Shown one piece after another: positions 26,248 to 46,269 of a stretch of DNA of 64,000 bases. Origin of the DNA: Clostridia bacterium. GTDB taxonomy: Bacteria > Bacillota > Clostridia > UBA1212 > UBA1255. The DNA lies in assembly GCA_017508875.1 (NCBI GenBank), contig JAFWQX010000066.1, positions 1,584 to 65,583 on the forward strand. Direction: 5' to 3'. Each line of letters opens with the position of its first letter. Position 1 is the stretch's first letter. The notes below the pieces were generated by a model. That model was not told the origin of the DNA. It saw only the letters and a list, made by a program, of their open reading frames with translations, and ran no database searches. Made by a program: the position numbers and the translations under genes.

Positions 26248-26339
26248 TCAAAACAGAAAAGTGAACTCCTCCCTTGCGATACCATTGTACCGCGAAGGAG
26301 GAGTTCTGTAAAATGTGCGATTTCAGGCTTGGTCGGTCA

Positions 26340-26470: not shown

Positions 26471-26579
26471 GAAGACAATGCAGACCTGAATCTTTACTTT
26501 TTTGTAAATTGGAGCGAATCATCTTTACTTTTCCGCTTTCTTGTGTTATAATAAGTAAAGATGAAAGTGAGGTCACACT

Positions 26580-27494: not shown

Positions 27495-27789
27495 GAAGGC
27501 AATGTTTAGTCAAAAACAAAAAAGTTAAACCCAAAAACAATCAATTCTATATATTAGTAACAATTTGAAAGCAAGCAGGAAAAACAGCAACATTAGTGTT
27601 ATCAAACTTTTATGTAATGATGCAAATTATATTTTGAGGGAAAGAGCAAAAGGCCTTAGGAAACTTTAAGCGATAACGTAAATCTAAAAGAATGGCAGCC
27701 CTATGATTGAGAGCTGTCATTCTTTATTCTATCTTAGTATACTGTTTTCAAAACGTTTGGCATGGTGGTTCCTCTTATGTTTTTGTTAA

Positions 27790-27900
27790 TGATCCATGGA
27801 GGAAAAATGCGCGCAGGTGCCGTAAACACTTAGTTTTATTTGTGGTTTGGTCAAATCCGTTATCTCCACTCAGACCAAATCTTTGTAGCCACAAATCCAG
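27790..27900. repeat. Island cassette-boundary repeat, copy 2 (mini-ORF 27807-27833, hairpin 27844-27881)
   Basis: Same element; hairpin stem carries compensatory changes relative to copy 1 (tat/ata -> ttt/aaa). Confidence 0.65.
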
Positions 27901-27931
27901 TGCTTGGGTATTTGATCAAAGCCTTGAAAAC

Positions 27932-29080: not shown

Positions 29081-29118
29081 AATTGCCTTTCCTTTCTAAG
29101 ACTTAACAAAATCTCAGA

Positions 29119-30630: not shown

Positions 30631-30694
30631 TTTTCAAAACAAAATCACGTTTTTCAAAACGAATTTTGATATTTTAACAATTGTGTTTTGAAAA
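30631..30694. promoter_or_regulatory. Operator-like TTTTCAAAAC decamer repeats (two direct upstream + one inside first codons + one inverted) upstream of AlbA_2/HATPase gene
   Basis: TTTTCAAAAC at 30608, 30631, 30651; GTTTTGAAAA at 30685. Confidence 0.4.
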
Positions 30695-30767
30695 ATGCGG
30701 CTTTTGTCAAATTGCGGAAGTGTTTCAGTGCCGCTTTTCGACAAAAGCCGTTGTTTTTATTGTCTTA

Positions 30768-30895
30768 TGATCCTCGGAGGAAAAATGCGTGCAGGTGCCG
30801 TAAACACTTGATTTTGTTGGGATTTGGTCAAATCCGTTATCTCCACTCAGACCATACTACCTTAGCGCTGTAAAGTGATGAATTTTTACTTTCGG
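30768..30895. repeat. Island cassette-boundary repeat, copy 3 (mini-ORF 30785-30811, weaker hairpin, conserved tail)
   Basis: Alignment with copies 1 and 2. Confidence 0.6.
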
Positions 30896-31307
30896 AGAGG
30901 TATTTAACAATCGTTATAATCGACAGAACAATGAACATTGTCAAAAACTTGTCGAAAAGTTGCGTCGTAAATGACGTAACTTTTTGATATTATGCTTTGA
31001 CGTAGGCGTACTATAATGTTATAATATCGAAAAGTAGCGTCGGCCCAGACGATATTGTGAGGTATAGATATGATAAAAAGAGATTTGTATTTGAACCGCA
31101 TCATAATTATGATGATAACGGTATTTATCATGTGAATCTTATTGATTTTCTTTTGGGAAAAGTGGAATTGTTTTGAAAACAAGCAAGTCTTGCGCGACCG
31201 TTCAAAGCGCGATCAAACGCCTGACTTAACTCTGATCGATCAAACAAAACGGGTCAAATAAAACCGGATAACGAACCAATATAAAAAATTCGGGGAGAAT
31301 AATTGAT

Positions 31308-31901
31308 ATGAAAAAGACCGAACTCGTTGAACGCTCAAAAATGTATTTGAAATTACTTATTAACGGGATACATCCTGTAACAGGGGAGCAGATCCCGACA
31401 GATTCTGCCTTATTGGGGGATAGAGTTAAAAAATGTTTTAGCTTTATCAGCGGGATCCTTGATGAATACATTGAATTAACCGGCAAAGTTGAAAAGCTCG
31501 AGAAGGAAAAGGAAGCTAATACTGTTATTGTTATGAAAAAGCAGCCATTTGCAATTTCACACGAACAATGCCAGGACATCAAGCTTTCAAAAGAACCAAT
31601 ATCGATGTACTCACTTGTGAGAAATATCAACTCAGTAATCAATACAGAATCAATGGAAAAAATGACTTCAACCGTTATCAACAAGTGGTTATTAAACAGA
31701 GGATTTATAACGGCGTCAAAAGTTCCGACAACTGTGAACAAAACTGTATTCAGCCCGTCGGAACTTGCGGCAAAAATAGGAATAAAAACCGAATCTGTTA
31801 TTAATAAGGCTACCGGCGAAATTAATCCGCAGATCAAATTCAGCGAAAGCGCTCAACTGTTTATAATTGAAAACATAGAAGAAATATCCGGATGCGTTTG
31901 A
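31308..31901 (+). CDS. Hypothetical protein (low GC, island-associated)
   Basis: ORF of 197 aa with RBS; preceded by TTGACG-17-TATAAT promoter at ~31036-31064; no recognizable motif. Confidence 0.4.
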   Translation: MKKTELVERSKMYLKLLINGIHPVTGEQIPTDSALLGDRVKKCFSFISGILDEYIELTGKVEKLEKEKEANTVIVMKKQPFAISHEQCQDIKLSKEPISMYSLVRNINSVINTESMEKMTSTVINKWLLNRGFITASKVPTTVNKTVFSPSELAAKIGIKTESVINKATGEINPQIKFSESAQLFIIENIEEISGCV

Positions 31902-31920: not shown

Positions 31921-33069
31921 TTAGCCTTTCACGAGCACGGTCTTCACGTTTTTGCCCGCGAGCGCATCGCGGAAAGCACGGTTCGTCTCGGAGACCGGAT
32001 ACGTTGTCGCCAGCGACCGGATAAGGGGCTGAAGTTCCGCGTGCTCTTTCAGGAAGGCGAGGTAGTCGTGAACGTCGATCATCGAATACTGCGAAGAACC
32101 GATGATCCGGAGCGCTTTAAACGTGATCAGCTCGGGCCGGATCTCAACGCCGCCCGCGTTACTGTATTGACCGGGAACGAGATAAACGCCGCGGTTTCGC
32201 AGAACGTTGATGCCGAGCGGGACAGCGGAAGGTGAGCCTGACGCCTCAAAGCACAGATCGACGCCGAGACCGCCGTTTTCCGCCTGGAGTTTTTTCTCAA
32301 CCGCGTCCGTGCCTTCCGCCTGAAGGCTCAGCACTTCGTCAGCGCCGAGTTCGAGCGCCAGTCTGCGCTTTTCAGGATTATCCCTGCCGGTCACAGCATA
32401 CAGTTTTTTTACGCCGATCGCGTGCAGATATACGATCGCGAAGCAGCCGACGGGGCCGAGCCCCTGAACGACGGCAACGGTTTCTTTTCCGGGGACAAAA
32501 CCCGCTCTTTGGCCCAGTCTGAATGCGTGTATTGCCGTGGGCCCGGGGCAGGCGAAGACCGCAGCTGCGACGGGGTCAATTCCTTCCGGTATCCGTACGA
32601 GGTTCGCAAGAGGAGTGAAATTGACCTCCGCGTACCCGCCGAACAGGTAAGGCGAAGTGTTTATGCTGCCCTCGTTCGTGACTTTCATATTCACGCAGTT
32701 CGCGTCGTCGCCGCTGAGGCAGAGGGGACATTCACCGCACGGCACCGCAATGTCGGCAATGACGTTGTCGCCGGGCTTCAGCCCGTATTTCGCCGCTTCC
32801 TCCGGATCGCAGTCATTAAGTCTTCCTACAAATTCATGTCCTACTATCGAATCCGCCGGTGCAAACAGCGTTCCTCTTTGAAAATGCAGGTCCGTGCCGC
32901 ATACGCCGCTCGCGATCAGCTCTGATCTTCCGTAGCCTTTCGGCGCCTTTACGACCTCGAATTCCCTGATCGCGAATGGCCTTCCGGGACCCTGAAACAC
33001 CGCGCCCTTTGCGGAAGGCGCTTTGATCTTATTGCTCCCGATGCAGTTGTTTTCAATAATTTCAGTCAT
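31921..33069 (-). CDS. Zinc-dependent alcohol dehydrogenase (MDR family)
   Basis: GVCGTDLH and GHEFVG catalytic-zinc motifs, structural-zinc Cys cluster CGECPLC, Rossmann GLGPVG; start set at MTEII with RBS AAAGGA. Confidence 0.85.
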   Translation of the reverse strand: MTEIIENNCIGSNKIKAPSAKGAVFQGPGRPFAIREFEVVKAPKGYGRSELIASGVCGTDLHFQRGTLFAPADSIVGHEFVGRLNDCDPEEAAKYGLKPGDNVIADIAVPCGECPLCLSGDDANCVNMKVTNEGSINTSPYLFGGYAEVNFTPLANLVRIPEGIDPVAAAVFACPGPTAIHAFRLGQRAGFVPGKETVAVVQGLGPVGCFAIVYLHAIGVKKLYAVTGRDNPEKRRLALELGADEVLSLQAEGTDAVEKKLQAENGGLGVDLCFEASGSPSAVPLGINVLRNRGVYLVPGQYSNAGGVEIRPELITFKALRIIGSSQYSMIDVHDYLAFLKEHAELQPLIRSLATTYPVSETNRAFRDALAGKNVKTVLVKG

Positions 33070-33101
33070 TTTAGCTAATCCTTTCTGGTACGAATAGTAA
33101 A

Positions 33102-33863
33102 TCACTCGACGGTACAATCGAAATATTGTCCGTAGATATTTTTTATGCGCGAAATTTCATCCGGGCCAGGCGGAGATGTCGATGCGTATGCGTATTCTTT
33201 CCCCATTGCCGCATATTTTGCACTTCCGAGCCGGTGAAAGGGGAGCAGATCCACTGACTTCACGCCCGCGCCAAGTAATTGACCGCACATGATTTCCGCG
33301 TCGTTTTCTGACAAATTAAACCCCGGTACGAGGGGTACACGCACGCGCACGTTCTCGCCGCGCCCCGTAAGTTTGCTGATATTGTTAAGTACCGCTTCCC
33401 GGTCTCCTCCGACGATTTTTGCGTACTTTTCGCTGTCCGCAGTTTTATAATCGATAAGGAACACCTGAATGCGGCCGAGCAGCGGCACGAACCGCTCCCA
33501 CGGAACGCACGCGGCTGTGTCTATGACCGTATTAACGCGTTCTTCAGCGAGCAGATCTATAAGCCCGGAGAACTCTTCGCTCTGAAGCATCGGCTCGCCT
33601 CCGCTTAAAGTGAGACCGCCGTCGTCCCCGTAAAATTCTTTATCTTCCAGCACTTCCTCCGCTATTCTCTCGATGGGCAAAAATCTCCCGTGAACGATAA
33701 CTTTCCCTGCCTGCGCGTATACCAGGCGCTCGGGCAATGCCGAAACCGTCTCGGGGTTATGGCACCACGGACAATGCAGGTTACAGCCCTTCAGGAATAC
33801 CGTCGTGCGTATCCCCGGACCGTCACCAGTGCTGAAGTGCTGTATTTCCGATACGTTTAACAT
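33102..33863 (-). CDS. Glycyl-radical enzyme activating protein (radical SAM)
   Basis: CNLHCPWCHNPE (CxxxCxxC), DGPGIRTTVFLKGC N-terminal block; start ATG 33863 or TTG 33869. Confidence 0.85.
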   Translation of the reverse strand: MLNVSEIQHFSTGDGPGIRTTVFLKGCNLHCPWCHNPETVSALPERLVYAQAGKVIVHGRFLPIERIAEEVLEDKEFYGDDGGLTLSGGEPMLQSEEFSGLIDLLAEERVNTVIDTAACVPWERFVPLLGRIQVFLIDYKTADSEKYAKIVGGDREAVLNNISKLTGRGENVRVRVPLVPGFNLSENDAEIMCGQLLGAGVKSVDLLPFHRLGSAKYAAMGKEYAYASTSPPGPDEISRIKNIYGQYFDCTVE

Positions 33864-33895
33864 GTTCAAAATTTCTGGCGCCCTGGCGGCAATTA

Positions 33896-36121
33896 TCAGA
33901 GATCGTCGTGCTGTGTGCGGCTAAGTATGTCGAGCTGGACCTCTTTCGCGAGCGTAACGTAGAGGGCTGAGAAACCGGAGACGCGGACAACGAGGGAACG
34001 GTAGTTTTCAGGATGTTCCATCGCGTCGATCAGTATCTTGCGCGAAGTCGAATTGATCTGGACTTCCTGGCCGCCGCGGCTGAAATACACGCGGATCAGC
34101 TTAAGCAGCTTTTCACGCTTCCCGTCCGCGAAGGCGGAAGGCGCAAATTTCTGATTAACCACCGTGCCGCACGCGCAATTCGTGTAATCGGGTTTAGAGA
34201 CGCTCAAGAGCGTTGACGTCACGCCGCGTGTATCGCATCCGTACGTGGGGGAGGCGGCGTCTGAAAGCGGCTTCCCGGCGAGTCTTCCGTCCGGCGTCGC
34301 GCCCAGAGCCATACCGGCGTTGATATTAGAAGTATTGGCCGCCATAGCGGTATAAAAACCGCCGCCGTCGTACGTGTGATACTTTCTGAACTCATCGGAC
34401 AAATGCTGCGTATACCAGACGGCGTAGCGGTCAACGAAATCGTCGTTGTTCCCGTATTTCGGCGCCGCGAGGGCAAGTGCGTGAAGTTCACCGTGACCTT
34501 CGTAATTATCGCGCATTGCCTGCACGATCTCCGAAAGCTTAGCGGCGCGGTCAACGAATACTATCTTTTCTATTGCCGCGAGCGAGTCGCTGACGGTCCC
34601 GACGCCCATAAGCGCCGCGCCGTGTATAGACGGATATTTCGAGCCGCCGTTGTTTATATCCTTGCCGCGCTCGATGCAGAACTGGGCGAAAAGCGACAGG
34701 AAGGAGCTGTTATAGTTTTCCGGATCAGGCACCGACATATAGCGGTTAGCGGTATCGACGTAATCTTTTACGGCCTTATCGAGCAGCAACGTATAGATCT
34801 TCATAAAATCTTCCATTGACTGAATGTCGTCAGGGCTGCTGAGTCTTCCGCCCTGTGCATCGCTTTTCACGCCGCATTCCGCAGCCGCACTCTGCAGCGT
34901 CTCACGGTCCAGAAGCATTTTTTCAAGGTAATTTATCGGGTCGAAACGCCCGTCGTTCCACGGCGGCTGCTGGCCGGGCAGGAAGTTTTCGATGCATCCC
35001 ACCATGCAGTAATTGCGCACGTCTTTAAGGTCGTATCCGTACCGCAGGAGGGCGGGAATATTCGCCATATCGTTCATAAGCGCGGGGTAGCCGAGACCGG
35101 TCCCGATGACTTTAAGGCATTCGTCCAGAAATTCGTCGGGCGTGTCAGGGGCAATGCGTGCAGAAAGGTTAGGACCGGGCATGTTGACGTCGCGTACGGC
35201 GCGAAGCACACAGAAGCTGAGCTCATTGACCGCGTTGATTCCGTCGGCGTCAACGCCCCCGATGCAGATATTTACGACGTCGTCTCCACCGAGAATCCTC
35301 TTTTCACAAATCTTCGCGAACGTGTTGGCAACGAGCAGTTCGGCTTCTTCGAACGTGATATTGCCGGCGTCAATATCTTTTTTGAACAGCGGGTACAGAT
35401 ACTGGTCGATCCTTCCGAGCGCCATGGCGTAGCGGCCCTCGTACAGATAGCAGCTGTGGATCATCCATACGAGCTGGAGCCCCTGCGCGAACGTCTGAGG
35501 CGCACCTTCCAAAAGCGCCTCGCAGTTGCTTTTTATGAAATCAAGCCGTGCAACTCCCGCAGGGTCGTTATCGCATTCCGCGGCAAGTTTTTTTGCAAGC
35601 TCCCCGTGTGCCCGGATACGCTCCGAGAGCCCCTTAAGCGCCAGCTCCATACTAAGCAGAAAGTCAACAACTTCCGGATCGTCAGAATGCTGCGCTTTCG
35701 ACGCTTCTATTTTGCGTTTCAGGCCTGGAATTCCGACGGTAAGAACGGTCTCGAAATCCGAAGCAAAATGGTCGCTATGCGTAGAAAAATTTCGCTCGGG
35801 ATACATCGCGTTAAGCCTGGCGGACTCAGCCTTCTGCTCGGGCGTAAGGTCAATAAACAGCGGCCTTATGCTTCCGACGATCAGGTCGTTTTTATATATT
35901 TGAGGCCGCGGCAACGTAAACAGCGAATAGATACCGGCCGCCCGTCTTCCTGACGGCGTGTCGCGGACAATATCTTCATCTGCGCCTTTTTCTTTTCTTT
36001 CAAAATAGCCGTATCCGACCGAGCGGAACCAGTCAGGTCTGTACTCTCCTGAAGCAGGGGAAAGCATCTCCTGCTTTAGCGTCTCTAAACTGTTGTTCCC
36101 GGCAAATTCACTGATTTTCAT
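33896..36121 (-). CDS. Glycyl radical enzyme, PFL2/glycerol-dehydratase-like family (substrate unknown)
   Basis: ~740 aa; C-terminal glycine-radical motif VRVSGFSALY; active-site Cys loop region; start taken at ATG 36121 with AGGAG 10 nt upstream (GTG 36130 alternative). Confidence 0.85.
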   Translation of the reverse strand: MKISEFAGNNSLETLKQEMLSPASGEYRPDWFRSVGYGYFERKEKGADEDIVRDTPSGRRAAGIYSLFTLPRPQIYKNDLIVGSIRPLFIDLTPEQKAESARLNAMYPERNFSTHSDHFASDFETVLTVGIPGLKRKIEASKAQHSDDPEVVDFLLSMELALKGLSERIRAHGELAKKLAAECDNDPAGVARLDFIKSNCEALLEGAPQTFAQGLQLVWMIHSCYLYEGRYAMALGRIDQYLYPLFKKDIDAGNITFEEAELLVANTFAKICEKRILGGDDVVNICIGGVDADGINAVNELSFCVLRAVRDVNMPGPNLSARIAPDTPDEFLDECLKVIGTGLGYPALMNDMANIPALLRYGYDLKDVRNYCMVGCIENFLPGQQPPWNDGRFDPINYLEKMLLDRETLQSAAAECGVKSDAQGGRLSSPDDIQSMEDFMKIYTLLLDKAVKDYVDTANRYMSVPDPENYNSSFLSLFAQFCIERGKDINNGGSKYPSIHGAALMGVGTVSDSLAAIEKIVFVDRAAKLSEIVQAMRDNYEGHGELHALALAAPKYGNNDDFVDRYAVWYTQHLSDEFRKYHTYDGGGFYTAMAANTSNINAGMALGATPDGRLAGKPLSDAASPTYGCDTRGVTSTLLSVSKPDYTNCACGTVVNQKFAPSAFADGKREKLLKLIRVYFSRGGQEVQINSTSRKILIDAMEHPENYRSLVVRVSGFSALYVTLAKEVQLDILSRTQHDDL

Positions 36122-36233
36122 CGGATCCACACTCCTGTACCGGTAAAAGTTTCAAAAACTGAAACTATACCCGCTGATCTTCGGAAAGTATATAATAAAA
36201 AAAGATAAAATGCAAACAAAAACTCTTTTTCCG

Positions 36234-36690
36234 CCGGGCGGCGGATAACTTTGGCACACAAAGTGGTAAAATCGGGTTTTGTGTGCCAGGCGGGCGCTGT
36301 CTCTTAGCCGGGCAGCAGCTAACTTTGGCACACAAAGTGGTAAAATCGGGTTTTGTGTGCCAGCAGGGCGCTGTCTCTCAGCCGGGCAGCAGCTAACTTT
36401 GGCACACAAAGTGGAAAAATCGAGATTTGTGTGCCAGCCCGGCTCTATCTTGAGAACATCAGAAGGCGAAAAATGAACAATTCGTGGCACACAAATCGCC
36501 GAAATTGAGGATCGTGTGCCACTCCTCCTAAATCTCCGGGAAAAAATGAGAAATTCGTGGCACACAAATCGCCGAAATCGAGGATCGTGTGCCACTCCTC
36601 CTAAATCTCCGGGGGAAAATGAGAAATTCGTGGCACACAAATCGACGAAATCGAGGATCGTGTGCCACTTCTCCTCAACCTCAGCAGGAA
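36234..36690. repeat. Array of six ~65-73-bp tandem units, each containing a long palindrome (type A x3: TGGCACACAAA-N15-TTTGTGTGCCA; type B x3: GTGGCACAC-N21-GTGTGCCAC)
   Basis: Palindromes at 36252-36288, 36326-36362, 36399-36436, 36485-36521, 36558-36594, 36630-36666; spacers between them nearly identical. Confidence 0.8.
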
Positions 36691-36761
36691 AATGAACAAT
36701 CCGTAGCGCGAGAAGATGTCAATACAATCATATGCAAATTAAGGCATAGATATACTCGCTG

Positions 36762-36813
36762 CTTGTTGCTCGTTCCTCGTTCCTCGTTCATCGTTACTCG
36801 TTGCTCGTCGTTC
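36762..36813. repeat. Heptamer microsatellite TTNCTCG x7 (CTCGTTCC-type) immediately upstream of promoter
   Basis: ttgctcg ttcctcg ttcctcg ttcatcg ttactcg ttgctcg tcgttcc. Confidence 0.6.
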
Positions 36814-36820: not shown

Positions 36821-36849
36821 TTGATTTTTCCTCCTGAAATCTTTATAAT
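36821..36849 (+). promoter_or_regulatory. Promoter TTGATT -17- TATAAT for partner-switching operon
   Basis: TTGATT 36821-26, TATAAT 36844-49. Confidence 0.5.
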
Positions 36850-36893
36850 TGAAACGTAAACAACTGGCATTGAAGCAGAAAGGGGAACGCCTT

Positions 36894-37190
36894 ATGAACA
36901 TAACAAAAAACAGAGAAGAAAACAAATTGACCGTCGCCGTCGAAGGAAAGATCGACTCTGTTACCGCACCGGAATTCGAAGAATTTATCAGGGAAAATAT
37001 TGACGGCGTGACCGAACTGACGTTCGATCTCTCGTCGCTCGACTATATATCTTCCGCAGGACTGCGCGTGCTTCTGCTTACCCAGAAACGCATGAATGCA
37101 CAGGGTACGATGAAGGTTACAAACGTCAATGAAACAGTGAGTGAGATTTTTGAAGTTACCGGTTTTTCTGACATACTCACTATCGCTTAA
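36894..37190 (+). CDS. STAS-domain anti-sigma-factor antagonist (SpoIIAA/RsbV-like)
   Basis: 98 aa; DLSSLDYISSAGLRVLL with conserved phosphorylatable Ser context; RBS AAAGGGGA. Confidence 0.8.
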   Translation: MNITKNREENKLTVAVEGKIDSVTAPEFEEFIRENIDGVTELTFDLSSLDYISSAGLRVLLLTQKRMNAQGTMKVTNVNETVSEIFEVTGFSDILTIA

Positions 37191-37217
37191 GCGGATGCTT
37201 TTAATAAGGAGCGCACA

Positions 37218-39356
37218 ATGCCCGAAAAAAGTGTAAGAGAGATGAATAAATACGAGAGGCTGCGTTATTCGCTCGCTTCCCGTACGTTCCATACTGCGAT
37301 AGGCGGAGCTGCGATCCTGGGGATCGTTGCCCTGGTCATCGGCCTCGGATGGTACGCTTATTCATACTCGAGCCAGCTTATCAAAGGAGCGTTCGGCGTT
37401 TCGAAGAACGCCCAGATGATAATATCGAAAATCATCGATCCGACCGATCTGGGGCGCGACGTGATGGATCTGTACAGATTGGTTCCTGAAGAAACCCGCG
37501 GTGACGGGGATGACGCGGAATACCTTTCACTGTACGACTCGTTTAAAACGCGGGAGGATTACGTACAGATATTGTCGATCCTTAAAGATTTTCGCGATTC
37601 CAGCACTGTCAGCGACGTGTACTACGCTATGTACGACGAAGAAACGGGTATGCTGGTATATTTTGCGGATCCGGACGAAGACGAAGACACTGTATGCCCT
37701 ACGGGCTTTTTTGAGACCGCCACGAAGAAAGAACTCAATACGTTCCTTCGCTGGAACGGCAAAAAAACGCCTTATTATATAGAAAAGACCGAAAGATACG
37801 GCTGGATCTGCACGACCGGAATAAGTGTAAAGGATCAGGACGGAAGCATTGCCGGATTCATACTCGCGGACGTAACGCTAAAAGAAGTGGGAAGCGGAAT
37901 GCTCAGGTTCCTGCTCCAGTACGGAATATCGATGTTCGTACTCATAAATCTTGTCGCGATATTCATGACGCGCCACATGAAGAAAAAGCTGGTAAAGCCC
38001 ATAAACGAGATCGCTGAGGCTGCCGAAGCGTATCTGAAAGATAAGAAAGACGGCGCAAGGGTGACGGATCATTTCTCGAAACTCAATATAAATACGGGTG
38101 ACGAAGTTGAGAATCTTGCCCTTATTATGGCAGATATGGAAACCGACCTGGCGGATTACGAGGACGATCTTACCAGAGTTGCCGCGGAAAAAGAGCGCAT
38201 CAGCATCGAACTTTCGCTCGCGACAAGGATCCAGGCGGATATGCTGCCGAATATTTTCCCCGCATTTCCTGAAAGAAGCGAGTTTGACGTGTTTGCGTCA
38301 ATGAAACCCGCGAAAGAAGTTGGCGGCGATTTTTACGACTTCTTCCTTATTGACGAAGACCACCTCGGACTCGTAATGGCTGACGTATCGGGGAAAGGTG
38401 TCCCCGCGGCGCTGTTTATGATGGTATCGAAGATACTTGTCCAGAACATAGCGATGTCAGGTAAAAGCCCGGCGGAGGTCATTAAGACTATCAACGCTCA
38501 GATCTGCGCCAATAACCGCGAAGAAATGTTCGTGACGGTGTGGTTCGGAGTGCTGGACGTTCGCGACGGCACGCTTAGGGCGGTCAATGCGGGCCATGAA
38601 TATCCGATGCTTAAGAAGCCCGGCGGCGACTTCGAACTGGTAAAAGACACACACGGATTCGTTGTGGGCGGATTCGCATCTTCAAAATACAAAGAATATG
38701 AACTGAAGCTTGAACCCGGTGCGAAGCTGTTTTTGTATACCGACGGAGTTACGGAAGCGTCTAACGAAGATTCCGTGCTTTTCGGAACGGGGCGAACGCT
38801 CGAAGTGCTGAATAAAAATAAAAATGAGGAGCCGGAGAAGGTCGTTCAGAGTGTAAACAATGCGATCTCTGAGTTTTGCGGAAGCGCTCCGCAGTTCGAT
38901 GATATTACGCTTATGTGTCTCGAGTATTTCGGGAAAGGGAACACGGAAATGAAGGAAATTACTGTCGAAGCCAAAATTGAAAATATCCCTGAAGTCACTG
39001 ATTTTGTCAACGGCGAACTTGAGAAACTTGAGTGTTCACTTAAGGCGCAGATGCAGATAGACGTGGCGATAGACGAAATGTTCGGCAACATTGCCCGCTA
39101 CGCATACGGCGGGGGCGCGGGAAACGCGACAGTTCAGATTCGCGCAAAGAAAGAACCCAAAGCGGTGGAACTGACGTTTATTGACGGCGGCACCCCGTAC
39201 GATCCTCTGAAGAAAGACGATCCGGATATCTCTCTCGGAGCTGACGAGAGGGAAGTCGGAGGGCTCGGGATCTTCCTGGTCAAAAAAACGATGGATGATA
39301 TGAAATACGAATATAAAGACGGGCAGAACAGACTTACGGTAACCAAATTGCTGTGA
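37218..39356 (+). CDS. Membrane sensor - PP2C (SpoIIE/RsbU-type) phosphatase - HATPase_c (RsbW/SpoIIAB-type kinase) fusion protein
   Basis: Two TM segments flanking ~180-aa extracytoplasmic domain; PP2C motifs GGDFYDFF, DVSGKGVPAALFM, TDGVTEA; C-terminal GHKL region VELTFIDGG...GGLGIFLVKK. Confidence 0.8.
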   Translation: MPEKSVREMNKYERLRYSLASRTFHTAIGGAAILGIVALVIGLGWYAYSYSSQLIKGAFGVSKNAQMIISKIIDPTDLGRDVMDLYRLVPEETRGDGDDAEYLSLYDSFKTREDYVQILSILKDFRDSSTVSDVYYAMYDEETGMLVYFADPDEDEDTVCPTGFFETATKKELNTFLRWNGKKTPYYIEKTERYGWICTTGISVKDQDGSIAGFILADVTLKEVGSGMLRFLLQYGISMFVLINLVAIFMTRHMKKKLVKPINEIAEAAEAYLKDKKDGARVTDHFSKLNINTGDEVENLALIMADMETDLADYEDDLTRVAAEKERISIELSLATRIQADMLPNIFPAFPERSEFDVFASMKPAKEVGGDFYDFFLIDEDHLGLVMADVSGKGVPAALFMMVSKILVQNIAMSGKSPAEVIKTINAQICANNREEMFVTVWFGVLDVRDGTLRAVNAGHEYPMLKKPGGDFELVKDTHGFVVGGFASSKYKEYELKLEPGAKLFLYTDGVTEASNEDSVLFGTGRTLEVLNKNKNEEPEKVVQSVNNAISEFCGSAPQFDDITLMCLEYFGKGNTEMKEITVEAKIENIPEVTDFVNGELEKLECSLKAQMQIDVAIDEMFGNIARYAYGGGAGNATVQIRAKKEPKAVELTFIDGGTPYDPLKKDDPDISLGADEREVGGLGIFLVKKTMDDMKYEYKDGQNRLTVTKLL

Positions 39357-39397
39357 CCTGCACAAGCTGCACTTCAAATAAAAAGGAGACAGAAGAT

Positions 39398-40570
39398 ATG
39401 AAATATAAAGAAAACGGCAGTGAATTGACAATAAATTTTGAGGGGCACATTGATTCCGCAAACGCGAAGGAGATAGAAGACGAGATCAGCGCCATAAAGG
39501 CAAAGGCACACCCGGAAAAACTTGTCATTGACTGCGAGAATCTTCAGTATATATCAAGCGCCGGACTCAGGATAGTTCTGCGCCTGATGAAAGAGATCAA
39601 ACCTATTTCTATCGTCAACGTCTCTTCCGAGGTTTACGAGATATTCGATATGACCGGTTTTACGGAGATGGCGGAGGTGCACAAAGCGTACAGAAAAGTG
39701 TCCGTCGACGGCTGCGAAATTATCGGAAAAGGTGCGAACGGAACCGTGTACAGAATTGACCGCGACACGATCGTAAAGGTCTACGTGAACCCGGATTCGC
39801 TGCCGGAAATCCAGCGCGAACGCGAGCTTGCCCGAAAAGCATTCGTGCTCGGTATCCCGACCGCTATACCGTACGACGTTGTCCGCGTAGGCGAAGGCTA
39901 CGGTTCGGTTTTTGAACTGCTCAGCGCAAAAAGCCTCGCTGAGATCCTCTCCAAAGATCCCGGCCAGTTCGACAGCGTACTTAAATACAGCGTGGATCTG
40001 CTCAAAACGATCCATTCGAAAGAACTTCCGAAAGGCGAGATGCCTGACTGCAAAGCCACGGTGCTGGGATGGGTGGAATTTCTGAAAGACTACCTTCCGG
40101 AAGCGCAATATAAAAAACTCAAGGCGCTCGTGGAGGCTGTCCCCGAGGATAACCATATTATGCACGGCGATTATCATATGAAAAACGTCATGCTGCAGGA
40201 CGGAGAAGCGCTGCTGATAGATATGGACACGCTGTGCCTCGGCCACCCGGTGTTCGAATTCGGCTCGATTTTTAATTCGTATATCGGATATTCTGAACTC
40301 GATACGGAAAACGTCAGAAAATTCCTCGGCATTCCTTTTGAAACCGCGAAACAGATATGGGACAGGACGGTGCGTATGTATTTCGGAACCGACGACGAGG
40401 CATTCATTCAGGCGGTAAAGGACAAGGCGAAGGTCGTAGGTTATACGAGAGTTATGCGCCGCGCGATTCGCCGCGGGTCAATGGACGATCCCGCCACGCT
40501 TGCTGTCGTCAATAACTGCAGAAAGCATTTTGACGAACTGCTTGCGCGCCTTGACACACTTGAATTCTGA
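39398..40570 (+). CDS. STAS domain fused to aminoglycoside-phosphotransferase/choline-kinase-like (protein-kinase fold) domain
   Basis: N-terminal STAS (LQYISSAGLRIVLRL); kinase-like Gly loop GKGANGTVY, Lys in VKVY, catalytic HGDYHMKNVML, IDMDT metal-binding loop. Confidence 0.7.
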   Translation: MKYKENGSELTINFEGHIDSANAKEIEDEISAIKAKAHPEKLVIDCENLQYISSAGLRIVLRLMKEIKPISIVNVSSEVYEIFDMTGFTEMAEVHKAYRKVSVDGCEIIGKGANGTVYRIDRDTIVKVYVNPDSLPEIQRERELARKAFVLGIPTAIPYDVVRVGEGYGSVFELLSAKSLAEILSKDPGQFDSVLKYSVDLLKTIHSKELPKGEMPDCKATVLGWVEFLKDYLPEAQYKKLKALVEAVPEDNHIMHGDYHMKNVMLQDGEALLIDMDTLCLGHPVFEFGSIFNSYIGYSELDTENVRKFLGIPFETAKQIWDRTVRMYFGTDDEAFIQAVKDKAKVVGYTRVMRRAIRRGSMDDPATLAVVNNCRKHFDELLARLDTLEF

Positions 40571-40583
40571 GAGGGGCGCCGCC

Positions 40584-41774
40584 ATGAAGATATACGTGCG
40601 AAAAAAGAAGCCGAAGCTTTACGGCCTGCTGATATTCTCGATAGTGTTTGTGATCGCCGTCGCGGTCCTTTATGCGATCTCGCAAAGCACGAGCTTTAAT
40701 GCGCTGCCTTACATAACGGTATCGATGCCGCTGTATTTTGCCGCAGTGCTTGTTATACTTGTGATATCGCTCAAAAGGCAGATCGAGTACAATCCTTATT
40801 CGTACAATACGATCTATTATTTCGGCTTTTCGCTGTTCGTATTGTCCGTGCTCGTCACCCATATTGCCGCGGCGATCAGATATTTCATGAACACCGGGGA
40901 ATACGGATTCCGCGATACGGCCAGAATCATACTCTGGTCTGCGCGGCAATACATGATCGTAACGTTTCCGCTGCTCGCTGTTTTCTCGATAGGCCTTCTG
41001 GTCTCGAATATTGTCCTAATTAAGAAAGAGGGGAAGAGCCTCGCCAATACTCTGGGCATTCTGCTCGCCGTAGCACTGATGGCGGGAGAGGGAGTGCTTA
41101 TCTGGCTCGGAAGCATTGCGTCGGGTCCTTTCGGTATCGCGATCAATCTTTTATGCGCCATTTTTGTTTACGCGGAATGTATGCTGTTCGGGGCGATTTT
41201 CGCTGACATTCTGGTGGCAACGCACGTTCCGGCGTATGACAAGGATTATATTCTGATATTGGGCTGCAAGGTAGCGAAAAACGGCGAACCGATGCCGATA
41301 CTTCAAAAACGTATTGACCGCGCCATCGCTTTTTATGACGAGCAGGTGAGCAGGACGGGGAAAGCTCCCGTATTCATTCCGTCCGGCGGAAAAGGGGCCG
41401 ATGAGCCGTTGTCCGAAGCGGAATGCATGCGCAATTACCTGATCGCCAAAGGGTTTACCGATGAGCAGATAATAATGGAAGACGAATCGAAAAATACCAT
41501 ACAGAACATGCGTTTTTCCTTTAAAAAAGTTCCCGAAGAGGCGAAATGCGCCTTTTCAACTTCCGGATATCACGTTTTCAGAAGCGGCATAGCAGCTAAC
41601 AGGGCGCAGAAATTCAAGGCGGAAGGCGTAGGCGCTCCGTCCAGATGGTATTTCTGGCCGAACGCTTCGGTGAGAGAATTCATCGGACTGCTTACGGGCC
41701 ACAGGGGAAAGCAGCTGCTCGTGCTGTTCGGGCTGATCGCGGCGTACCTGCTGCTGAGCTTTCTGGCCGGATGA
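40584..41774 (+). CDS. Polytopic membrane protein with C-terminal DUF218 (YdcF/SanA/ElyC-like) domain
   Basis: 6 predicted TM helices then ILGCKV...PILQKRIDRAIAFY...FIPSGGKG...ECMRNYL (DUF218 pattern). Confidence 0.6.
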   Translation: MKIYVRKKKPKLYGLLIFSIVFVIAVAVLYAISQSTSFNALPYITVSMPLYFAAVLVILVISLKRQIEYNPYSYNTIYYFGFSLFVLSVLVTHIAAAIRYFMNTGEYGFRDTARIILWSARQYMIVTFPLLAVFSIGLLVSNIVLIKKEGKSLANTLGILLAVALMAGEGVLIWLGSIASGPFGIAINLLCAIFVYAECMLFGAIFADILVATHVPAYDKDYILILGCKVAKNGEPMPILQKRIDRAIAFYDEQVSRTGKAPVFIPSGGKGADEPLSEAECMRNYLIAKGFTDEQIIMEDESKNTIQNMRFSFKKVPEEAKCAFSTSGYHVFRSGIAANRAQKFKAEGVGAPSRWYFWPNASVREFIGLLTGHRGKQLLVLFGLIAAYLLLSFLAG

Positions 41775-41859
41775 TCTTTTTGCTCGCGTTTTGCTCGCGA
41801 TGAGTTGCCAATCCGGGCAGATCAGTATATAATATAAAAAAATACCCGGAGGTAACTGT

Positions 41860-43590
41860 ATGTTTTGTCCATTTTGCGGAAACGAAGTAAAAGACGGATC
41901 GGTCTTTTGTCAGAAATGTGGAAAACGGCTTGTAAATGAGGCTGCGAACAGCGTTCAGATAAAAAAGAAAGCGGAGACCTCTGCAGAGGCTGCAGCAGCA
42001 GAAAAAGAAGCAAAAACAGAAGCAAAAGCTGCCAAACCTGTTTCAAACACGCCCAAAAAGAAACTAAGCAAAAAAGCGTTGACCGGAATAATTGCCGGAG
42101 CAGCCGCACTGGTACTGGCGATAATCCTTATAGTAGTACTTGTGTCTGTTAACAGAAATAAAGGCGGAAAGTCTAATTTTGCAGTTCCTTCAGGGGCAAT
42201 AGAGTATTTTGAAAAAGACGGATATTTATATCTTGTCAACTCGAAAGGCGCGCTCACCAGAGTGGACCTTGACGGCGGCGAACTCAACAGGTACAACATC
42301 AAGTTCGATACGAACAACGAAAAGGCTGTGTTCGCCGTTGAACGCAAGTCTGATAACTGGCTTTCGAGCAGTTCATACGACGTATATTATTATGACGGAA
42401 AAAGTGCTGTTAAGATCGATGAGATCACAGATGAGTACTACTATGACGGTTTCCGGATCTCTGCCGGCGGAAATGTCGTCGTTTATGCAAAAGACGATAA
42501 TATTTACTCATATTCCGGAGGAAAGAGCGCTCTGATCGCTGAAGACGCCGAACTTTCTGCTTTGTCTCCGAACGGAAAAACGATCGGGTATTACAAGCGT
42601 ACTGAAGATAAAGTGCAGGGTTATTATTTCACCGGAGGAAAAGAACATTTCGTGATCAATTCCGGCTATCCCGTTTTTATAACGAATAACGCAGATCTCG
42701 TTTATATAGAGCGCGAAGGCAGTTCGGACTCCAGCACGTTCTATGCCCAGAAGAAGGACAAAGAAGATACGAGAGTAAAGCTGTGGAATGAAAGTGACGT
42801 AAGCAGCGGCGGCACAGTAAATTATGACGGCACCCAGCTGCTTATTTTAAAGGGAAACGGATCGTATTTCTGCAAGAACGGCAATGAACCTGTAAAAGTT
42901 TCGAATAAAAAGTTGACTCCGCTTATCCCGTATAGGGTATTTGGCAGAAGTTATAATTCGGGGGAACAGGTCATCAAAAATCTGGAAAATGCTATATATT
43001 TAGAGAGATCAGGCAGCGACTCGTATTCTTCCGGCGCTGATATTGTCGTATTGAGAGCCGGAAAAACAGAGAAAGTCGTATCCGGACTGGATTCAGATTC
43101 GATCATTGACGCTACTATCTCGCTTGACGGAAGGTCGTTCGGATACGAGGACGACGAAGGTCTGCATTATATCAGGCTCGCGAAGGACGCAAAGGAACAA
43201 TTGGTAATTGACGCTAATGATTATGAGACGTATTTCGTTGACCCTGATCTGACGGTAGCATTTTACTGGAATGAATTCGACGAATTGTATTTCCAGAAGC
43301 TTAACGGCAAGGCAGTGAAGGTATTTGACGCAAGCAGCAATAAAACGGCAAAGACCAGCTGCCTGTTCGGCAAAAAGTTGTATTTTGTACAAGACAATAC
43401 GTTGTACTGCTCGAACGGCGGGAAAGCCTTTGAAGTCCGAAAAGACGTTGCAAATGTATACGCCGGCCTAAAAGTGCTGCTTATTAGCGACGTAGAAGGG
43501 AACGTTTATTCTTCTACAGACGGTAAGAGCTTCACAAAGATAGCGGACACCGATTTCATTGCCGAAGAAAGCGGATCTATCTGGGATTGA
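41860..43590 (+). CDS. Zinc-ribbon (CxxC-x10-CxxC) single-pass membrane protein with large extracytoplasmic beta-rich domain
   Basis: MFCPFCGNEVKDGSVFCQKCG; Lys/Ala-rich linker; TM helix LTGIIAGAAALVLAIILIVVLV; ~470-aa Tyr/Gly/Asp-rich domain. Confidence 0.55.
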   Translation: MFCPFCGNEVKDGSVFCQKCGKRLVNEAANSVQIKKKAETSAEAAAAEKEAKTEAKAAKPVSNTPKKKLSKKALTGIIAGAAALVLAIILIVVLVSVNRNKGGKSNFAVPSGAIEYFEKDGYLYLVNSKGALTRVDLDGGELNRYNIKFDTNNEKAVFAVERKSDNWLSSSSYDVYYYDGKSAVKIDEITDEYYYDGFRISAGGNVVVYAKDDNIYSYSGGKSALIAEDAELSALSPNGKTIGYYKRTEDKVQGYYFTGGKEHFVINSGYPVFITNNADLVYIEREGSSDSSTFYAQKKDKEDTRVKLWNESDVSSGGTVNYDGTQLLILKGNGSYFCKNGNEPVKVSNKKLTPLIPYRVFGRSYNSGEQVIKNLENAIYLERSGSDSYSSGADIVVLRAGKTEKVVSGLDSDSIIDATISLDGRSFGYEDDEGLHYIRLAKDAKEQLVIDANDYETYFVDPDLTVAFYWNEFDELYFQKLNGKAVKVFDASSNKTAKTSCLFGKKLYFVQDNTLYCSNGGKAFEVRKDVANVYAGLKVLLISDVEGNVYSSTDGKSFTKIADTDFIAEESGSIWD

Positions 43591-43636: not shown

Positions 43637-44710
43637 ATGAGCAAAAAAAGGATTATATGTACGATTATTATTGCCGCCGTACTCACTGCCGCTGCGTGCC
43701 TGACGGCCTGCAGTACTTCGGCGCCCGAGCCGCAGAAAACGGATAAACCCGCTGCGACCGCGACAGAAATTATTGGCAACGCGACGAAGGCGCCCGATTC
43801 CGAAGCGACTGAGTTGATCACGACTGCTCCGACTGACGAACCTGTAATAACCCCCACGGACGCTCCGACTCCGGCTCCTACCGAAGCACCGCTTCCCGAA
43901 CCCGGAACGATGGTCTATTACGAGGACTTTTCTTCATACGGAAACGTCAGCAAAAACGATGAAGTAGCTAAAACGCTCGGCTGGAAGCTCCTGACCGTAG
44001 AAGCTGACGGAGCACCGAGCGATCTTACAGCGACGCTTGCGATCAAAGACGGAAAGCTTGAAGTGACGAACTTTAACGCTGACGGGGACAGCGACGGAAA
44101 AGACGGATATCTTATGATGCTTGACGACGCGTATATGGACAAGGTGCTTCGCGCGGGTGAATATACCGTCGAGTATGACGTTACGTACAACGACGCGGCT
44201 AATTACAAGCGCTACGTCAACGTTGTTACTGAATATAACAGCGAAGGGTTTAATTCGTTCCATTTCAGAATAGGCGGTTACGGCAACAATCAGCTTTATT
44301 ATCAGGGAACGTGGTTCAAATACGAGGAAAACACCGAGAGAAACTTATATGCCGCAAGGAAGGGTAACAACGAGATCGGGCAGACTATCGCGTTTAAGCT
44401 TCGCGGAATAGAGGGGAAAATAGAGGATAACAACGCTATTCCCAACTTTAAAGGTGTTCCGGTCACGATACGCGTCGTACGGTCGAACGGGTATGCGTCG
44501 GTTTATATGAAGACCGCGGAAATGAATGATTTTATTCAGGTGAGTGAAACTACCGAAACTTCCGAAGCGTTTAATACGGGCAAGTTGCTGAAGGGCAAGG
44601 CGGTCTGTTTTAAGGTCGGCGGAAAGATCAATGCTTCGGTGGATCGCATTGCTATCTGGACGGGCAGCGGAGAAATGCCTGCGGATCATACGGTGACGTA
44701 TGTGCCTTAA
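43637..44710 (+). CDS. Lipoprotein with Pro/Thr/Ala-rich linker, uncharacterized domain
   Basis: Signal peptide + lipobox LTACS; TDEPVITPTDAPTPAPTEAPLPEP linker; RBS GGAAGGG. Confidence 0.6.
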   Translation: MSKKRIICTIIIAAVLTAAACLTACSTSAPEPQKTDKPAATATEIIGNATKAPDSEATELITTAPTDEPVITPTDAPTPAPTEAPLPEPGTMVYYEDFSSYGNVSKNDEVAKTLGWKLLTVEADGAPSDLTATLAIKDGKLEVTNFNADGDSDGKDGYLMMLDDAYMDKVLRAGEYTVEYDVTYNDAANYKRYVNVVTEYNSEGFNSFHFRIGGYGNNQLYYQGTWFKYEENTERNLYAARKGNNEIGQTIAFKLRGIEGKIEDNNAIPNFKGVPVTIRVVRSNGYASVYMKTAEMNDFIQVSETTETSEAFNTGKLLKGKAVCFKVGGKINASVDRIAIWTGSGEMPADHTVTYVP

Positions 44711-44897: not shown

Positions 44898-44922
44898 AGA
44901 TATGAGGCTGCATTCTGCAGAG

Positions 44923-46269
44923 ATGAATATGACGGAAGGACCGATCGCGAAGCAGATCGTTATTTTCGCCATACCGCTTTTTCTGGGGAATCTTTTCCAG
45001 CAGCTGTACAACACCGCGGACACGTTCGTTGTGGGAAATCTGCTGGGCGATGACGCTCTGGCGGCGGTCAGTTCGTCAGGCAGCCTGATCTTTCTGCTTG
45101 TGGGCTTTTTCAGCGGGATCGCTATGGGCGCCGGAGTGGCGATAGCGCGCTTTTACGGGGCGGGAGAAGTGGCGCTTATGCGCAAAGCCATACACACGTC
45201 GCTCGCCACGTTTTTTCTTGCCGGGATCGTGATGTCGGTCGCCGGGGCGTTCGGGGCAAGGTCAATGCTTCAGCTGATGAGTACGCCGTCCGAGGTCCTC
45301 GCGCAGGCAACGGAATACGTTGCCACCTACTTCGCCGGGCTTGTTACTATGATCATGTACAACGTGTGCATGGGCATTATGCAGGCCGTGGGCGACTCGC
45401 GCCACCCGCTTTATTACCTCATCATTTCATCTGTTGTCAACATCGTGCTGGACTATGCGTTCATAGGGCTGTTCGGATTCGGAGTGTGGTCCGCGGCGAT
45501 TGCCACCGTCCTGTCTCAGCTTTTAAGCGTGTGCCTTTGCTTATGGAGACTTATGCGGATCGATGCGGATTACCGCGTAAACTTTAAAGAACTCCGTATT
45601 GACCGCAAAACACTCGCCCTTATCCTCAAATACGGCCTGCCGTCCGGATTTCAGAATTCAGTGATTTCGATAGCGAACGTCGTGGTCCAGTCTCACATCA
45701 ATCATTTCGGTAAGGAGGCAATGGCAGGCTGCGGTGCGTACGCTAAGATCGAAGGGTTCGCGTTCCTGCCGGTTACGTGCTTCAGCGCCGCTATCACCAC
45801 TTTCGTAAGTCAGAACCTCGGGGCGCGCAATCCCGAGAGAGCGAAGAAGGGAGCAAGGTTCGGGATATTGACCGCGGTACTTGCTGCGGAGGTCATAGGA
45901 GGCATTATAATCCTGGCTGCCCCGTATCTGATCGACGCGTTTACGGAAAGCAAAGAAGCGCTCGCGTTCGGCGTTGACAAATCGCGCATCTGCAGCGGCT
46001 TCTTCTTCCTGTGTGCGCTCTGCCACTGTCTCGCGGCGGTGCTGCGCGGCGCGGGAAAGGCGGTGGTGCCGATGGCGGCGATGCTTGCCTGCTGGTGCCT
46101 TATCCGCGTCACGATCCTGTTTATCTTCGTCCCTGTCCTCGGCACTATCGACATAGTTAACTGGGTCTATCCGATCACCTGGTTCCTGTGCGCCGGAGTT
46201 TTAGCCATATATTATTTTACTGCCGACTGGGCGGGACAGCGAAAAAAAGAAGCCGTAACGGGTGACTGA
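44923..46269 (+). CDS. MATE-family multidrug/oligosaccharidyl-lipid efflux transporter
   Basis: 12 TM helices, N-terminal AIPLFLGNLFQQLYNTADTFVVGNL typical of MATE; start ATG 44923 (44902 alternative). Confidence 0.8.
   Translation: MNMTEGPIAKQIVIFAIPLFLGNLFQQLYNTADTFVVGNLLGDDALAAVSSSGSLIFLLVGFFSGIAMGAGVAIARFYGAGEVALMRKAIHTSLATFFLAGIVMSVAGAFGARSMLQLMSTPSEVLAQATEYVATYFAGLVTMIMYNVCMGIMQAVGDSRHPLYYLIISSVVNIVLDYAFIGLFGFGVWSAAIATVLSQLLSVCLCLWRLMRIDADYRVNFKELRIDRKTLALILKYGLPSGFQNSVISIANVVVQSHINHFGKEAMAGCGAYAKIEGFAFLPVTCFSAAITTFVSQNLGARNPERAKKGARFGILTAVLAAEVIGGIIILAAPYLIDAFTESKEALAFGVDKSRICSGFFFLCALCHCLAAVLRGAGKAVVPMAAMLACWCLIRVTILFIFVPVLGTIDIVNWVYPITWFLCAGVLAIYYFTADWAGQRKKEAVTGD

Follow-up and report, generated by a model that had tools for sequence, protein, structure and literature searches.

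What might a partner-switching system control when no sigma factor accompanies it? Partner switching is usually taught as a means of controlling sigma factors, and it is known to control something else in only a few cases: those of SypA, of SiaC acting on SiaD and, since 2026, of All4160. The question is raised by an operon in the metagenome-assembled genome (MAG) of an uncultured rumen member of the Clostridia, of which we analysed a 64-kb stretch (the window). A first-pass annotation had described five co-directional genes, here called g1 to g5, that are separated by gaps of 27, 41, 13 and 85 bp. Both the coordinates and the gaps were reproduced with a six-frame list of the open reading frames (ORFs) of the window, and every domain that had been named was recovered with Pfam or NCBIfam profiles. 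We conclude that the operon probably encodes a partner-switching-type module for serine phosphorylation that acts on an enzyme instead of a sigma factor. The candidate target is a predicted kinase encoded by g3, which carries a STAS domain of its own.

The g3 gene (39398-40570, forward strand) encodes a protein of 390 amino acids (aa) in which a STAS domain (aa 4-95; Pfam, 8.8e-16) is followed by an APH domain (aa 107-296; 4.1e-16). Both folds were confirmed, as expected from the earlier description of a second STAS domain that is covalently joined to an APH-like kinase, and an AlphaFold2 model depicts STAS and kinase as one confident chain (predicted local distance difference test score, pLDDT, 90.7; predicted template modelling score, pTM, 0.75). 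Ser54 of the STAS domain (codon 39557-39559) aligns with the phospho-acceptor Ser58 of SpoIIAA. The APH/choline-kinase-fold domain (aa ~100-390) carries a glycine loop at G110-G115, K127, the sequence H256-G-D258-x4-N263 and D275. With this glycine loop, beta3 lysine, HxDxxxxN motif and magnesium-binding aspartate, g3 falls within the APH/choline kinase superfamily (PF01636), and its kinase domain is 8-17% identical to members with solved structures. Protein kinases ranked lower in the fold comparison (YihE 13.3, Bud32 ~11.5), and no equivalog model that defines a substrate matched g3 (TIGR02172, the model of a paralogous family, gave 100.8 bits against a cut-off of 228).

Proteins with this STAS-APH architecture form a large and uncharacterised family. 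A profile search of 1.84 billion cluster representatives (clusters at 50% identity) returned 12,771 matches at E≤1e-3, and 936 clusters were matched at E≤1e-30. Relatives occur in the genomes of 347 species, mostly rumen and gut Bacillota. Among the best 150 cluster representatives, which are 33-62% identical to g3 and almost all full-length at about 390 aa, Ser54 is retained in 147 of 148. The kinase residues are similarly well preserved: K127 is found in 148 of these representatives, H256 and D258 in 146, N263 in 145 and D275 in 147. Judged by this conservation, both halves of the protein are under selection. In public databases the family members are annotated as ‘anti-sigma factor antagonist’ or ‘phosphotransferase’, and full-text searching of the literature found no paper on a STAS-APH fusion. 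Its members combine a STAS switch domain and a small-molecule-type kinase in one chain, and they are inherited together with a GHKL kinase and a PP2C phosphatase of their own.

The first two genes supply the other expected components of such a switch. The g1 gene (36894-37190, forward strand) encodes a single-domain STAS protein of 98 aa when read from its ATG codon (Pfam, 6.8e-16), which scores 75 bits with the NCBIfam model ant_ant_sig (cut-off 53.45); the N-terminus of g3 likewise exceeds this cut-off. The putative phospho-acceptor of g1 is Ser54 (codon 37053-37055) in the motif YISSAGLR. The STAS domains of g1 and g3 are 38% identical, and each carries this same motif with its serine at position 54.

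Pfam matches, hydropathy and fold together describe g2 (37218-39356, forward strand) as a bifunctional membrane sensor of 712 aa. Transmembrane (TM) segments, which were assigned by hydropathy throughout, lie at aa 23-50 and aa 228-251 and flank an extracytoplasmic sensor domain with a PDC/Cache-like fold (aa ~51-227; 37368-37898). The fold of this domain matches those of DctB, CitA and a formate sensor, which makes organic acids candidate ligands. A HAMP-like region and helical linker (aa ~252-342) then lead to a PP2C/SpoIIE phosphatase domain (aa 379-570; 38352-38927; Pfam, 9.7e-52) and finally to a GHKL (HATPase_c_2) domain of the anti-sigma-type serine kinases (aa 584-710; 38967-39347; 4.2e-19). 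Hydropathy and fold thus bear out the claim that a kinase and a phosphatase share one polypeptide behind a two-TM sensor. The STAS, GHKL and PP2C logic recognized in the first-pass annotation also stands, with catalytic motifs that are intact. In 55 homologues of 51-67% identity, the PP2C metal ligands (D371, D389, D509, D561 and D562) and the N, G1 and G2 boxes of the GHKL domain (E620, N624, D656, G658 and G681-G684) are invariant, and this invariance argues that both predicted activities of g2 are probably real. Orthology with the classical sporulation and stress proteins was examined with NCBIfam equivalog models and rejected, as the scores were 48 versus 115 bits for spore_II_AA, 19 versus 135 for spIIAB, 41 versus 491 for spore_II_E and 30 versus 145 for RsbW.

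If these proteins work together, their genes should remain associated in other genomes. One genome per species was scanned, and from the relatives found in 347 species we fetched 80 loci, of which 79 were scoreable; ORFs were called in each locus and then searched with the domains of the window. The loci derive from Oscillospiraceae, Lachnospiraceae, Ruminococcaceae, Erysipelotrichaceae, Christensenellales, Peptococcaceae and one Olsenella MAG. Directly 5ʹ of the STAS-APH gene lies a gene for an HD_4 protein (31 loci), PP2C-GHKL (21), stand-alone GHKL (10) or STAS (2), together accounting for 64 of 78 loci, and directly 3ʹ lies STAS in 13 and DUF218 in 10 of the 79. Within 7 kb of STAS-APH, GHKL is present in 54 of the 79 loci, free STAS in 50, PP2C in 42 and DUF218 in 13, and GHKL is nearby in 44 of the 62 loci that include at least 3.5 kb of upstream sequence. 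PP2C and GHKL are encoded by separate genes in five loci (L013, L047, L052, L080 and L087).

The association also holds when the search begins from the partners. Three of four PP2C-GHKL homologues (53-58% identity) are followed directly by STAS-APH, and the fourth (L090) is followed directly by DUF218. In L088, PP2C-GHKL and STAS-APH form a two-gene operon with opposite-strand genes on either side. Three of four DUF218 homologues (44-56% identity) reside in the same type of neighbourhood, although each has a different gene order: HAMP-PP2C, STAS-APH-GHKL, Cof-type HAD, MatE-GHKL and DUF218 in L092; STAS, a 209-aa protein without a Pfam match, STAS-APH, GHKL and DUF218 in L094; and HD_4, STAS-APH, a 920-aa protein without a Pfam match and DUF218 in L096. 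DUF218 adjoins STAS-APH, GHKL or PP2C-GHKL in L089, L090, L092, L094 and L096. Hence the DUF218 gene that was counted as a member of the operon is indeed a recurrent neighbour when approached from three search directions, though in a minority of loci. Some partners are covalently joined to the family. Cluster representatives include STAS-APH-GHKL (the two independent representatives P0248 and P0273, as well as the protein in L092), GHKL-STAS-APH (P0243) and HD_4-STAS-APH (P0330) fusions, and further representatives have the architectures HD-CE-STAS-APH, Na_H_Exchanger-STAS-APH, STAS-APH-PHP and STAS-APH with a PolyA_pol head domain.

The five-gene unit proposed at first does not survive this comparison, because its synteny is not conserved: the zinc-ribbon gene g5 has a counterpart near STAS-APH in only 3 of 79 loci, all from the closest relatives (L008, L009 and L073), and a free STAS gene is missing from about a third. 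Conversely, the commonest partners elsewhere lay outside the view of the first-pass annotation, namely HD_4 (the immediate upstream neighbour in 31 of the 79 loci), fusions of MatE with GHKL (found in 10 of 80) and Cof-type HAD phosphatases. The comparison supports a real module, but one that is smaller and more modular than five genes, with g1 optional and DUF218 a minority partner. Its input end is variable as well, since the region ahead of PP2C-GHKL is 5TMR-LYT in L014, dCache_1 in L038 and HAMP in L043. One Vescimonas MAG (JAZLJB01) has two paralogous modules, one with a 5TMR-LYT-PP2C-GHKL protein (L014) and one with a 683-aa PP2C-GHKL protein (L019), which suggests that the family grows by swapping input domains.

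These data bear on the simplest alternative, in which signalling involves only the pair g1 and g2, and g3 to g5 have no functional relation to it and lie downstream by chance. A promoter-like site ahead of g5 and the lineage-specific distribution of g5 and the next gene, g6, would fit such an arrangement. However, adjacency is kept across Oscillospiraceae, Lachnospiraceae, Erysipelotrichaceae and Christensenellales at 56-65% identity, gene content is shared while gene order varies, and covalent fusions exist. There is hardly any chance that the genes are mere neighbours, and for g1 to g4 specifically this is very unlikely.

Whether the switch lacks a sigma factor was examined with phmmer and hmmsearch, which were run on all stop-to-stop ORFs of 80 aa or longer from the window and the 80 loci. 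SigF and SigW probes served as seeds only, and a hidden Markov model (HMM) was then built from the matches. Neither the probes nor the HMM revealed a sigma-70-family ORF in the 64-kb window. Genes for extracytoplasmic function (ECF)-type sigma factors occur in three of the 80 loci (L031:2254-2820, L052:3431-4090 and L019:5334-5867) and a fragment occurs in L014, leaving 76 of 80 with none within ~10 kb. Just two of 131 co-directional neighbours (140-330 aa) from the 79 loci carry Sigma70_r2 and r4 domains. The description of the operon as sigma-less therefore extends beyond the operon to the whole window, and the STAS-APH family is sigma-less in cis. The three loci with ECF-type genes may represent rare variants in which the switch touches transcription too.

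The module could nevertheless be an anti-sigma switch of the conventional kind, with the gene for its sigma factor at another place in the genome. The GHKL domain of g2 would then sequester the sigma factor, g1 and the g3 STAS domain would act as ordinary antagonists, the true output would be transcription, and the APH domain would be a passenger or modulator. Structurally, the nearest relatives of the g2 GHKL domain are the true anti-sigma factors SpoIIAB and RsbW, and in L031 and L052 the ECF-type sigma gene directly adjoins the free STAS gene. A precedent also exists in Rv1364c, a protein linked to SigF. This protein of Mycobacterium tuberculosis, a phosphatase that initiates the general stress response, unites PAS, PP2C, anti-sigma and STAS (anti-anti-sigma) domains on one chain, in the same PP2C-to-GHKL order as g2 (PMC12143880). 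It differs from g2 in that its PAS sensor is cytoplasmic and its STAS domain is present in cis at the C-terminus (PMC12143880). The scarcity of sigma genes and of Sigma70 domains described above argues against this alternative, as do the scores far under the cut-offs for the SpoIIAB, RsbW, SpoIIAA and SpoIIE equivalogs. Moreover, a passenger role for the APH domain would hardly account for the self-contained two-gene operons and the fusions of GHKL with STAS-APH, and the catalytic residues of the kinase are under strong purifying selection together with the phospho-serine. On balance, an anti-sigma function appears unlikely.

Several observations nonetheless weigh against an enzyme as the target of the switch. 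The section of the genome that was examined spans 64 kb, and the g2 GHKL domain could bind a sigma factor encoded elsewhere in that genome. In nine loci (L030, L048, L057, L058, L059, L070, L079, L081 and L084) the STAS-APH gene has no detectable switch components nearby, which makes regulation in trans, or none at all, possible in these cases. About 12 loci have GHKL but no PP2C nearby.

A different alternative reverses the direction of information flow. The STAS-APH protein might be an input, in which the kinase domain reports the level of a metabolite, by binding it or turning it over, and alters the availability of its STAS domain to GHKL. The effective output would then be g1, or GHKL itself, through action on proteins of the membrane, for example DUF218 or a transporter of the MATE, SDF, MscS or Na+/H+ type. 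Transporters do recur in these neighbourhoods. MatE-HATPase_c_2 fusions are present in 10 of the 80 loci (e.g. L027:7657-9411, L038:6751-8520 and L092:4231-5976), an SDF symporter in 13 and MscS in 7 (ABC exporters, found in 18 loci, are another recurrent neighbour), and one representative is a Na_H_Exchanger-STAS-APH fusion. We found no description in the literature of a MATE protein with a C-terminal HATPase_c_2 domain, and through this fusion the transporter may serve the same switch as its sensor or be one of its clients. STAS domains are also known to regulate SLC26 transporters (PMC8256260), and in L090 the PP2C-GHKL gene is followed directly by DUF218 without STAS-APH. Yet the free STAS protein that would carry the output is missing from about a third of the loci, including the minimal two-gene operons, and DUF218 and the transporters are each present in a minority. 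Nothing points to a non-catalytic APH sensor, as all catalytic residues are retained. We therefore consider an input role for STAS-APH improbable.

Control of the g3 kinase by the switch is the reading that these observations support best. The first-pass annotation had suggested that the output is a kinase activity, and this idea fits the two-gene operon of L088, the fusions between GHKL and STAS-APH and the near-invariance of both the phospho-serine and the catalytic residues. In the mechanism that we propose, the Cache/PDC domain of g2 would sense an extracytoplasmic ligand, and the HAMP-like region would relay the signal to set the balance between the PP2C phosphatase and the GHKL serine kinase of the same protein. 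Both activities are expected to act on Ser54 of the g3 STAS domain and of free g1, as motif identity, synteny and the fusions suggest. The phosphorylation state of Ser54 might then gate the APH-fold kinase, either by intramolecular autoinhibition or because the GHKL domain retains the STAS-kinase at the membrane as long as it is unphosphorylated. If All4160 of Anabaena and SpoIIAA are a guide, the phosphorylated STAS domain would represent the released or inactive state. The g1 protein could compete as a substrate or serve as a decoy, and so sharpen or buffer the switch. The minimal two-gene operons imply that the module can do without g1 and that STAS-APH can serve as its only client.

Because its nearest folds are all small-molecule kinases, the g3 kinase most probably transfers phosphate to a hydroxyl group of a peptide or small molecule. 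The recurrent DUF218 partner, and possibly MATE, would place the pathway at the membrane or envelope. If this mechanism is correct, an extracellular signal would be converted directly into a phosphorylated metabolite or envelope precursor without the involvement of transcription. A role would thereby be offered for thousands of genes that are currently annotated as ‘anti-sigma factor antagonist’, ‘phosphotransferase’ or ‘SpoIIE family protein phosphatase’. The hypothesis is directly testable: the predicted phospho-site (Ser54) is defined, as are the catalytic residues and partner proteins, and a cultured carrier exists among the loci (Erysipelotrichaceae bacterium NK3D112, L049).

The nearest precedent for a STAS-fused enzyme as client is found in Anabaena PCC 7120, where a partner-switching-like module consists of HenR (a REC-SpoIIE phosphatase), the kinase Alr3423 and All4160, a STAS-Bac_transf protein (bioRxiv 10.64898/2026.04.08.717354). 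Alr3423 and All2284 phosphorylate Ser74 of All4160 in vitro, and the non-phosphorylatable STAS variant S74A bypasses loss of HenR; STAS-glycosyltransferase proteins are widespread in cyanobacteria according to the same authors (bioRxiv 10.64898/2026.04.08.717354). Like All4160, g3 has an N-terminal STAS domain with a predicted phospho-serine that is fused to a catalytic domain. In Anabaena a SpoIIE-type phosphatase and a GHKL-type serine kinase act on the N-terminal STAS domain of an enzyme, and regulation is post-translational with no sigma factor. The module of the window would work in the same manner, as suggested by genomic linkage (adjacency in 64 of 78 loci, fusions and two-gene operons). 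The enzyme is a Bac_transf sugar transferase in Anabaena, whereas it is an APH-fold kinase here. Furthermore, the Anabaena phosphatase has a REC input and is separate from the kinase, and the genes are dispersed, whereas g2 fuses kinase and phosphatase behind a Cache-HAMP sensor within a single Bacillota operon.

Other known systems resemble individual parts of the module. SypE of Vibrio fischeri is a dual kinase and phosphatase for the STAS protein SypA, and the output involves no known sigma factor (PMC8256260). As predicted for g2, an RsbW-like serine kinase and a PP2C phosphatase reside on one polypeptide that acts on a STAS protein. SypE is reportedly cytoplasmic and is said to have a central REC domain in the order kinase-REC-PP2C. 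SypA consists of STAS only and, unlike g3, has no enzyme fused to it. The diguanylate cyclase SiaD is under the control of SiaA, SiaB and SiaC, and members of the Campylobacterota have been observed to possess bifunctional PP2C-kinase proteins (PMC9239204). In the SiaABCD system of Pseudomonas aeruginosa, by contrast with g2 and g3, kinase and phosphatase are separate proteins, and the STAS-like protein is not fused to the regulated enzyme but binds it in trans. The g2 protein is not an orthologue of SiaA, because it scores 68.8 bits with NF038263 against a cut-off of 700. The operon contains no GGDEF gene that could encode a SiaD-type partner, and in the related loci a GGDEF gene follows the module in L002 only.

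In many relatives of g3, a co-encoded HD_4 or Cof-type HAD phosphohydrolase probably reverses the kinase reaction, and the frequent location of such a protein beside the kinase, or fused to it, suggests that the kinase product is turned over. The only family matches of the HD_4 neighbours are to the N-terminal hydrolase region of RelA/SpoT. Cof-type HAD-IIB phosphatases are found as STAS-HAD fusions within the operons that encode STAS-APH (L034:6766-7845 and L067:3875-5005), where, as predicted from their domains, they constitute a second STAS-tethered enzyme with chemistry opposite to that of the kinase. Speculatively, the STAS-gated kinase and the HD_4 protein (31 of 79 loci, sometimes fused) or the Cof-type HAD protein (sometimes STAS-fused) may form a signal-controlled cycle of phosphorylation on a small molecule. 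We regard this proposal as rather unlikely, and the locus in the window has neither HD_4 nor Cof-type HAD; its MATE protein is present but unfused. Candidates for the small molecule are a messenger of nucleotide or alarmone-like type and a precursor for the membrane or cell wall that DUF218 and MATE would handle. Such a cycle, if real, would represent a previously unrecognised and, in gut and rumen Bacillota, widespread pathway for signalling or envelope modification, in which the partner switch serves as a direct metabolic valve.

The remaining genes of the co-directional run are less firmly tied to the switch. The first-pass annotation had placed a DUF218 membrane protein and a zinc-ribbon membrane protein downstream of g3, and the corresponding domains and TM segments were found in g4 and g5. 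The g4 gene (40584-41774, forward strand) encodes a polytopic DUF218 protein of the SanA/ElyC/YdcF type (396 aa; Pfam, 4.1e-25, 88.7 bits versus a gathering threshold of 27.6). Its DUF218 domain covers aa 221-368, hydropathy indicates six or seven N-terminal TM segments and one C-terminal TM segment, and by the positive-inside rule the DUF218 domain may, with low confidence, be cytoplasmic. Homologues of g4 carry the source name ‘YdcF family protein’, no NCBIfam model matched the protein, and sequence searches of the PDB returned nothing useful for g4 or g5. In Escherichia coli, SanA and ElyC affect the synthesis of peptidoglycan and enterobacterial common antigen (PMC12176290, PMC3879167). 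They share with g4 a DUF218 domain and membrane anchoring, and they differ from it in that g4 has the many TM segments listed above. The envelope-directed function that was first suggested for the operon is not borne out by the present data, as it derives only from these known E. coli proteins, and by this analogy DUF218 is a weak pointer to an envelope function for g4.

The zinc-ribbon protein g5 (41860-43590, forward strand; 576 aa) has a Zn_Ribbon_1 domain at aa 2-24 (2.2e-07), one TM segment at aa 71-103 and then an extracytoplasmic domain of ~470 aa. Identity with TcaA was considered and rejected: NF053815 scores 14.9 bits (cut-off 550) in a match confined to aa 3-48, and the likeness is restricted to the architecture of zinc ribbon, TM segment and ectodomain. 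The co-directional run extends past the end of the five genes to g6 (43637-44710, forward strand), a lipoprotein-like protein with a signal peptide and cysteine but no family match, and then to a MATE transporter (44902-46269, forward strand) with which the run ends. The g6 gene travels with g5 in the closest relatives; both are lineage-specific additions, and membership of g5 in the module is doubtful. The MATE transporter may be linked to the module because MatE-GHKL fusions occur in related loci. A reading of the locus as an anti-phage defence system was also set aside, and PADLOC defence models gave no match among six proteins.

A promoter-like site (TTGATT-17-TATAAT; 36821-36849, forward strand) lies 45 bp 5ʹ of the g1 ATG codon, and a GAAAGGGGAA ribosome-binding site is located ahead of g1 at ~36879-36888. 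An alternative TTG start for g1 at 36849 would fall within the promoter-like site. This site corresponds to the promoter reported in the first-pass annotation, but with 10 of 12 matches it is near-consensus rather than consensus. Such sites are no more common in the region than in shuffled sequence (10 observed versus 10.4 expected, i.e. no enrichment), and the site is therefore suggestive only. The best promoter-like match of the region (TTGCCA-17-TATAAT, 41805-41833, 11 of 12) is located inside the 85-bp gap ahead of g5. It may be a promoter for g5 itself, and its position suggests that g5, g6 and the MATE gene may be transcribed apart from g1 to g4. An intrinsic terminator scan found no terminator-like site in the intergenic gaps up to 47.4 kb. 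No riboswitch or other known RNA was detected 5ʹ of g1, as a search at Rfam gathering thresholds identified two tRNAs, both elsewhere in the window.

The immediate upstream neighbour of the module is a divergent operon (31921-36130, reverse strand) for a 744-aa glycyl-radical enzyme of the PFL2 family, a radical-SAM activase and a zinc-dependent alcohol dehydrogenase. The glycyl-radical enzyme falls under every equivalog cut-off (CutC, HypD, sulfopropanediol dehydratase and PFL). A functional tie between this operon and the module was set aside, as the synteny held only in the closest relatives L009 and L073.

The glycyl-radical-enzyme operon and g1 are separated by 760 bp of intergenic DNA, which contains two adjoining tandem arrays whose copies are 92-93% identical, one at 36233-36438 (74 bp x 2.8 copies) and one at 36470-36695 (73 bp x 3.1 copies). 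Each unit of the first array includes a hairpin with 10-bp arms, GGCACACAAA-N15-TTTGTGTGCC, and the second array has a variant of this hairpin with shorter arms (...GTGTGCC). When searched for exactly, this pattern picks out the three hairpins of the first array and so gives six matches over both strands, versus 0 expected in shuffled sequences. These repeats have no Rfam match and are present neither in the 94%-identical relative L008 nor in the other fetched loci. A short tandem repeat, which can be read as a GTTCCTC-like 7-mer in six copies or a 14-mer in four, is located at 36753-36808, directly 5ʹ of the -35 element of the promoter-like site.

Beyond the divergent operon, the stretch from ~24000 to 31900 has a low GC content of 0.40-0.43, versus ~0.52 elsewhere, and begins right after a tRNA gene (23971-24043). 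It encodes AbiEi_2-domain, HTH-Fic, PRiA4_ORF3/DUF6933 and Schlafen-AlbA_2/HATPase_c_4 proteins, and looks like an accessory or defence-type islet that was inserted at the tRNA. A second dip in GC content, to 0.34-0.40, occurs in the window at 54-58 kb.

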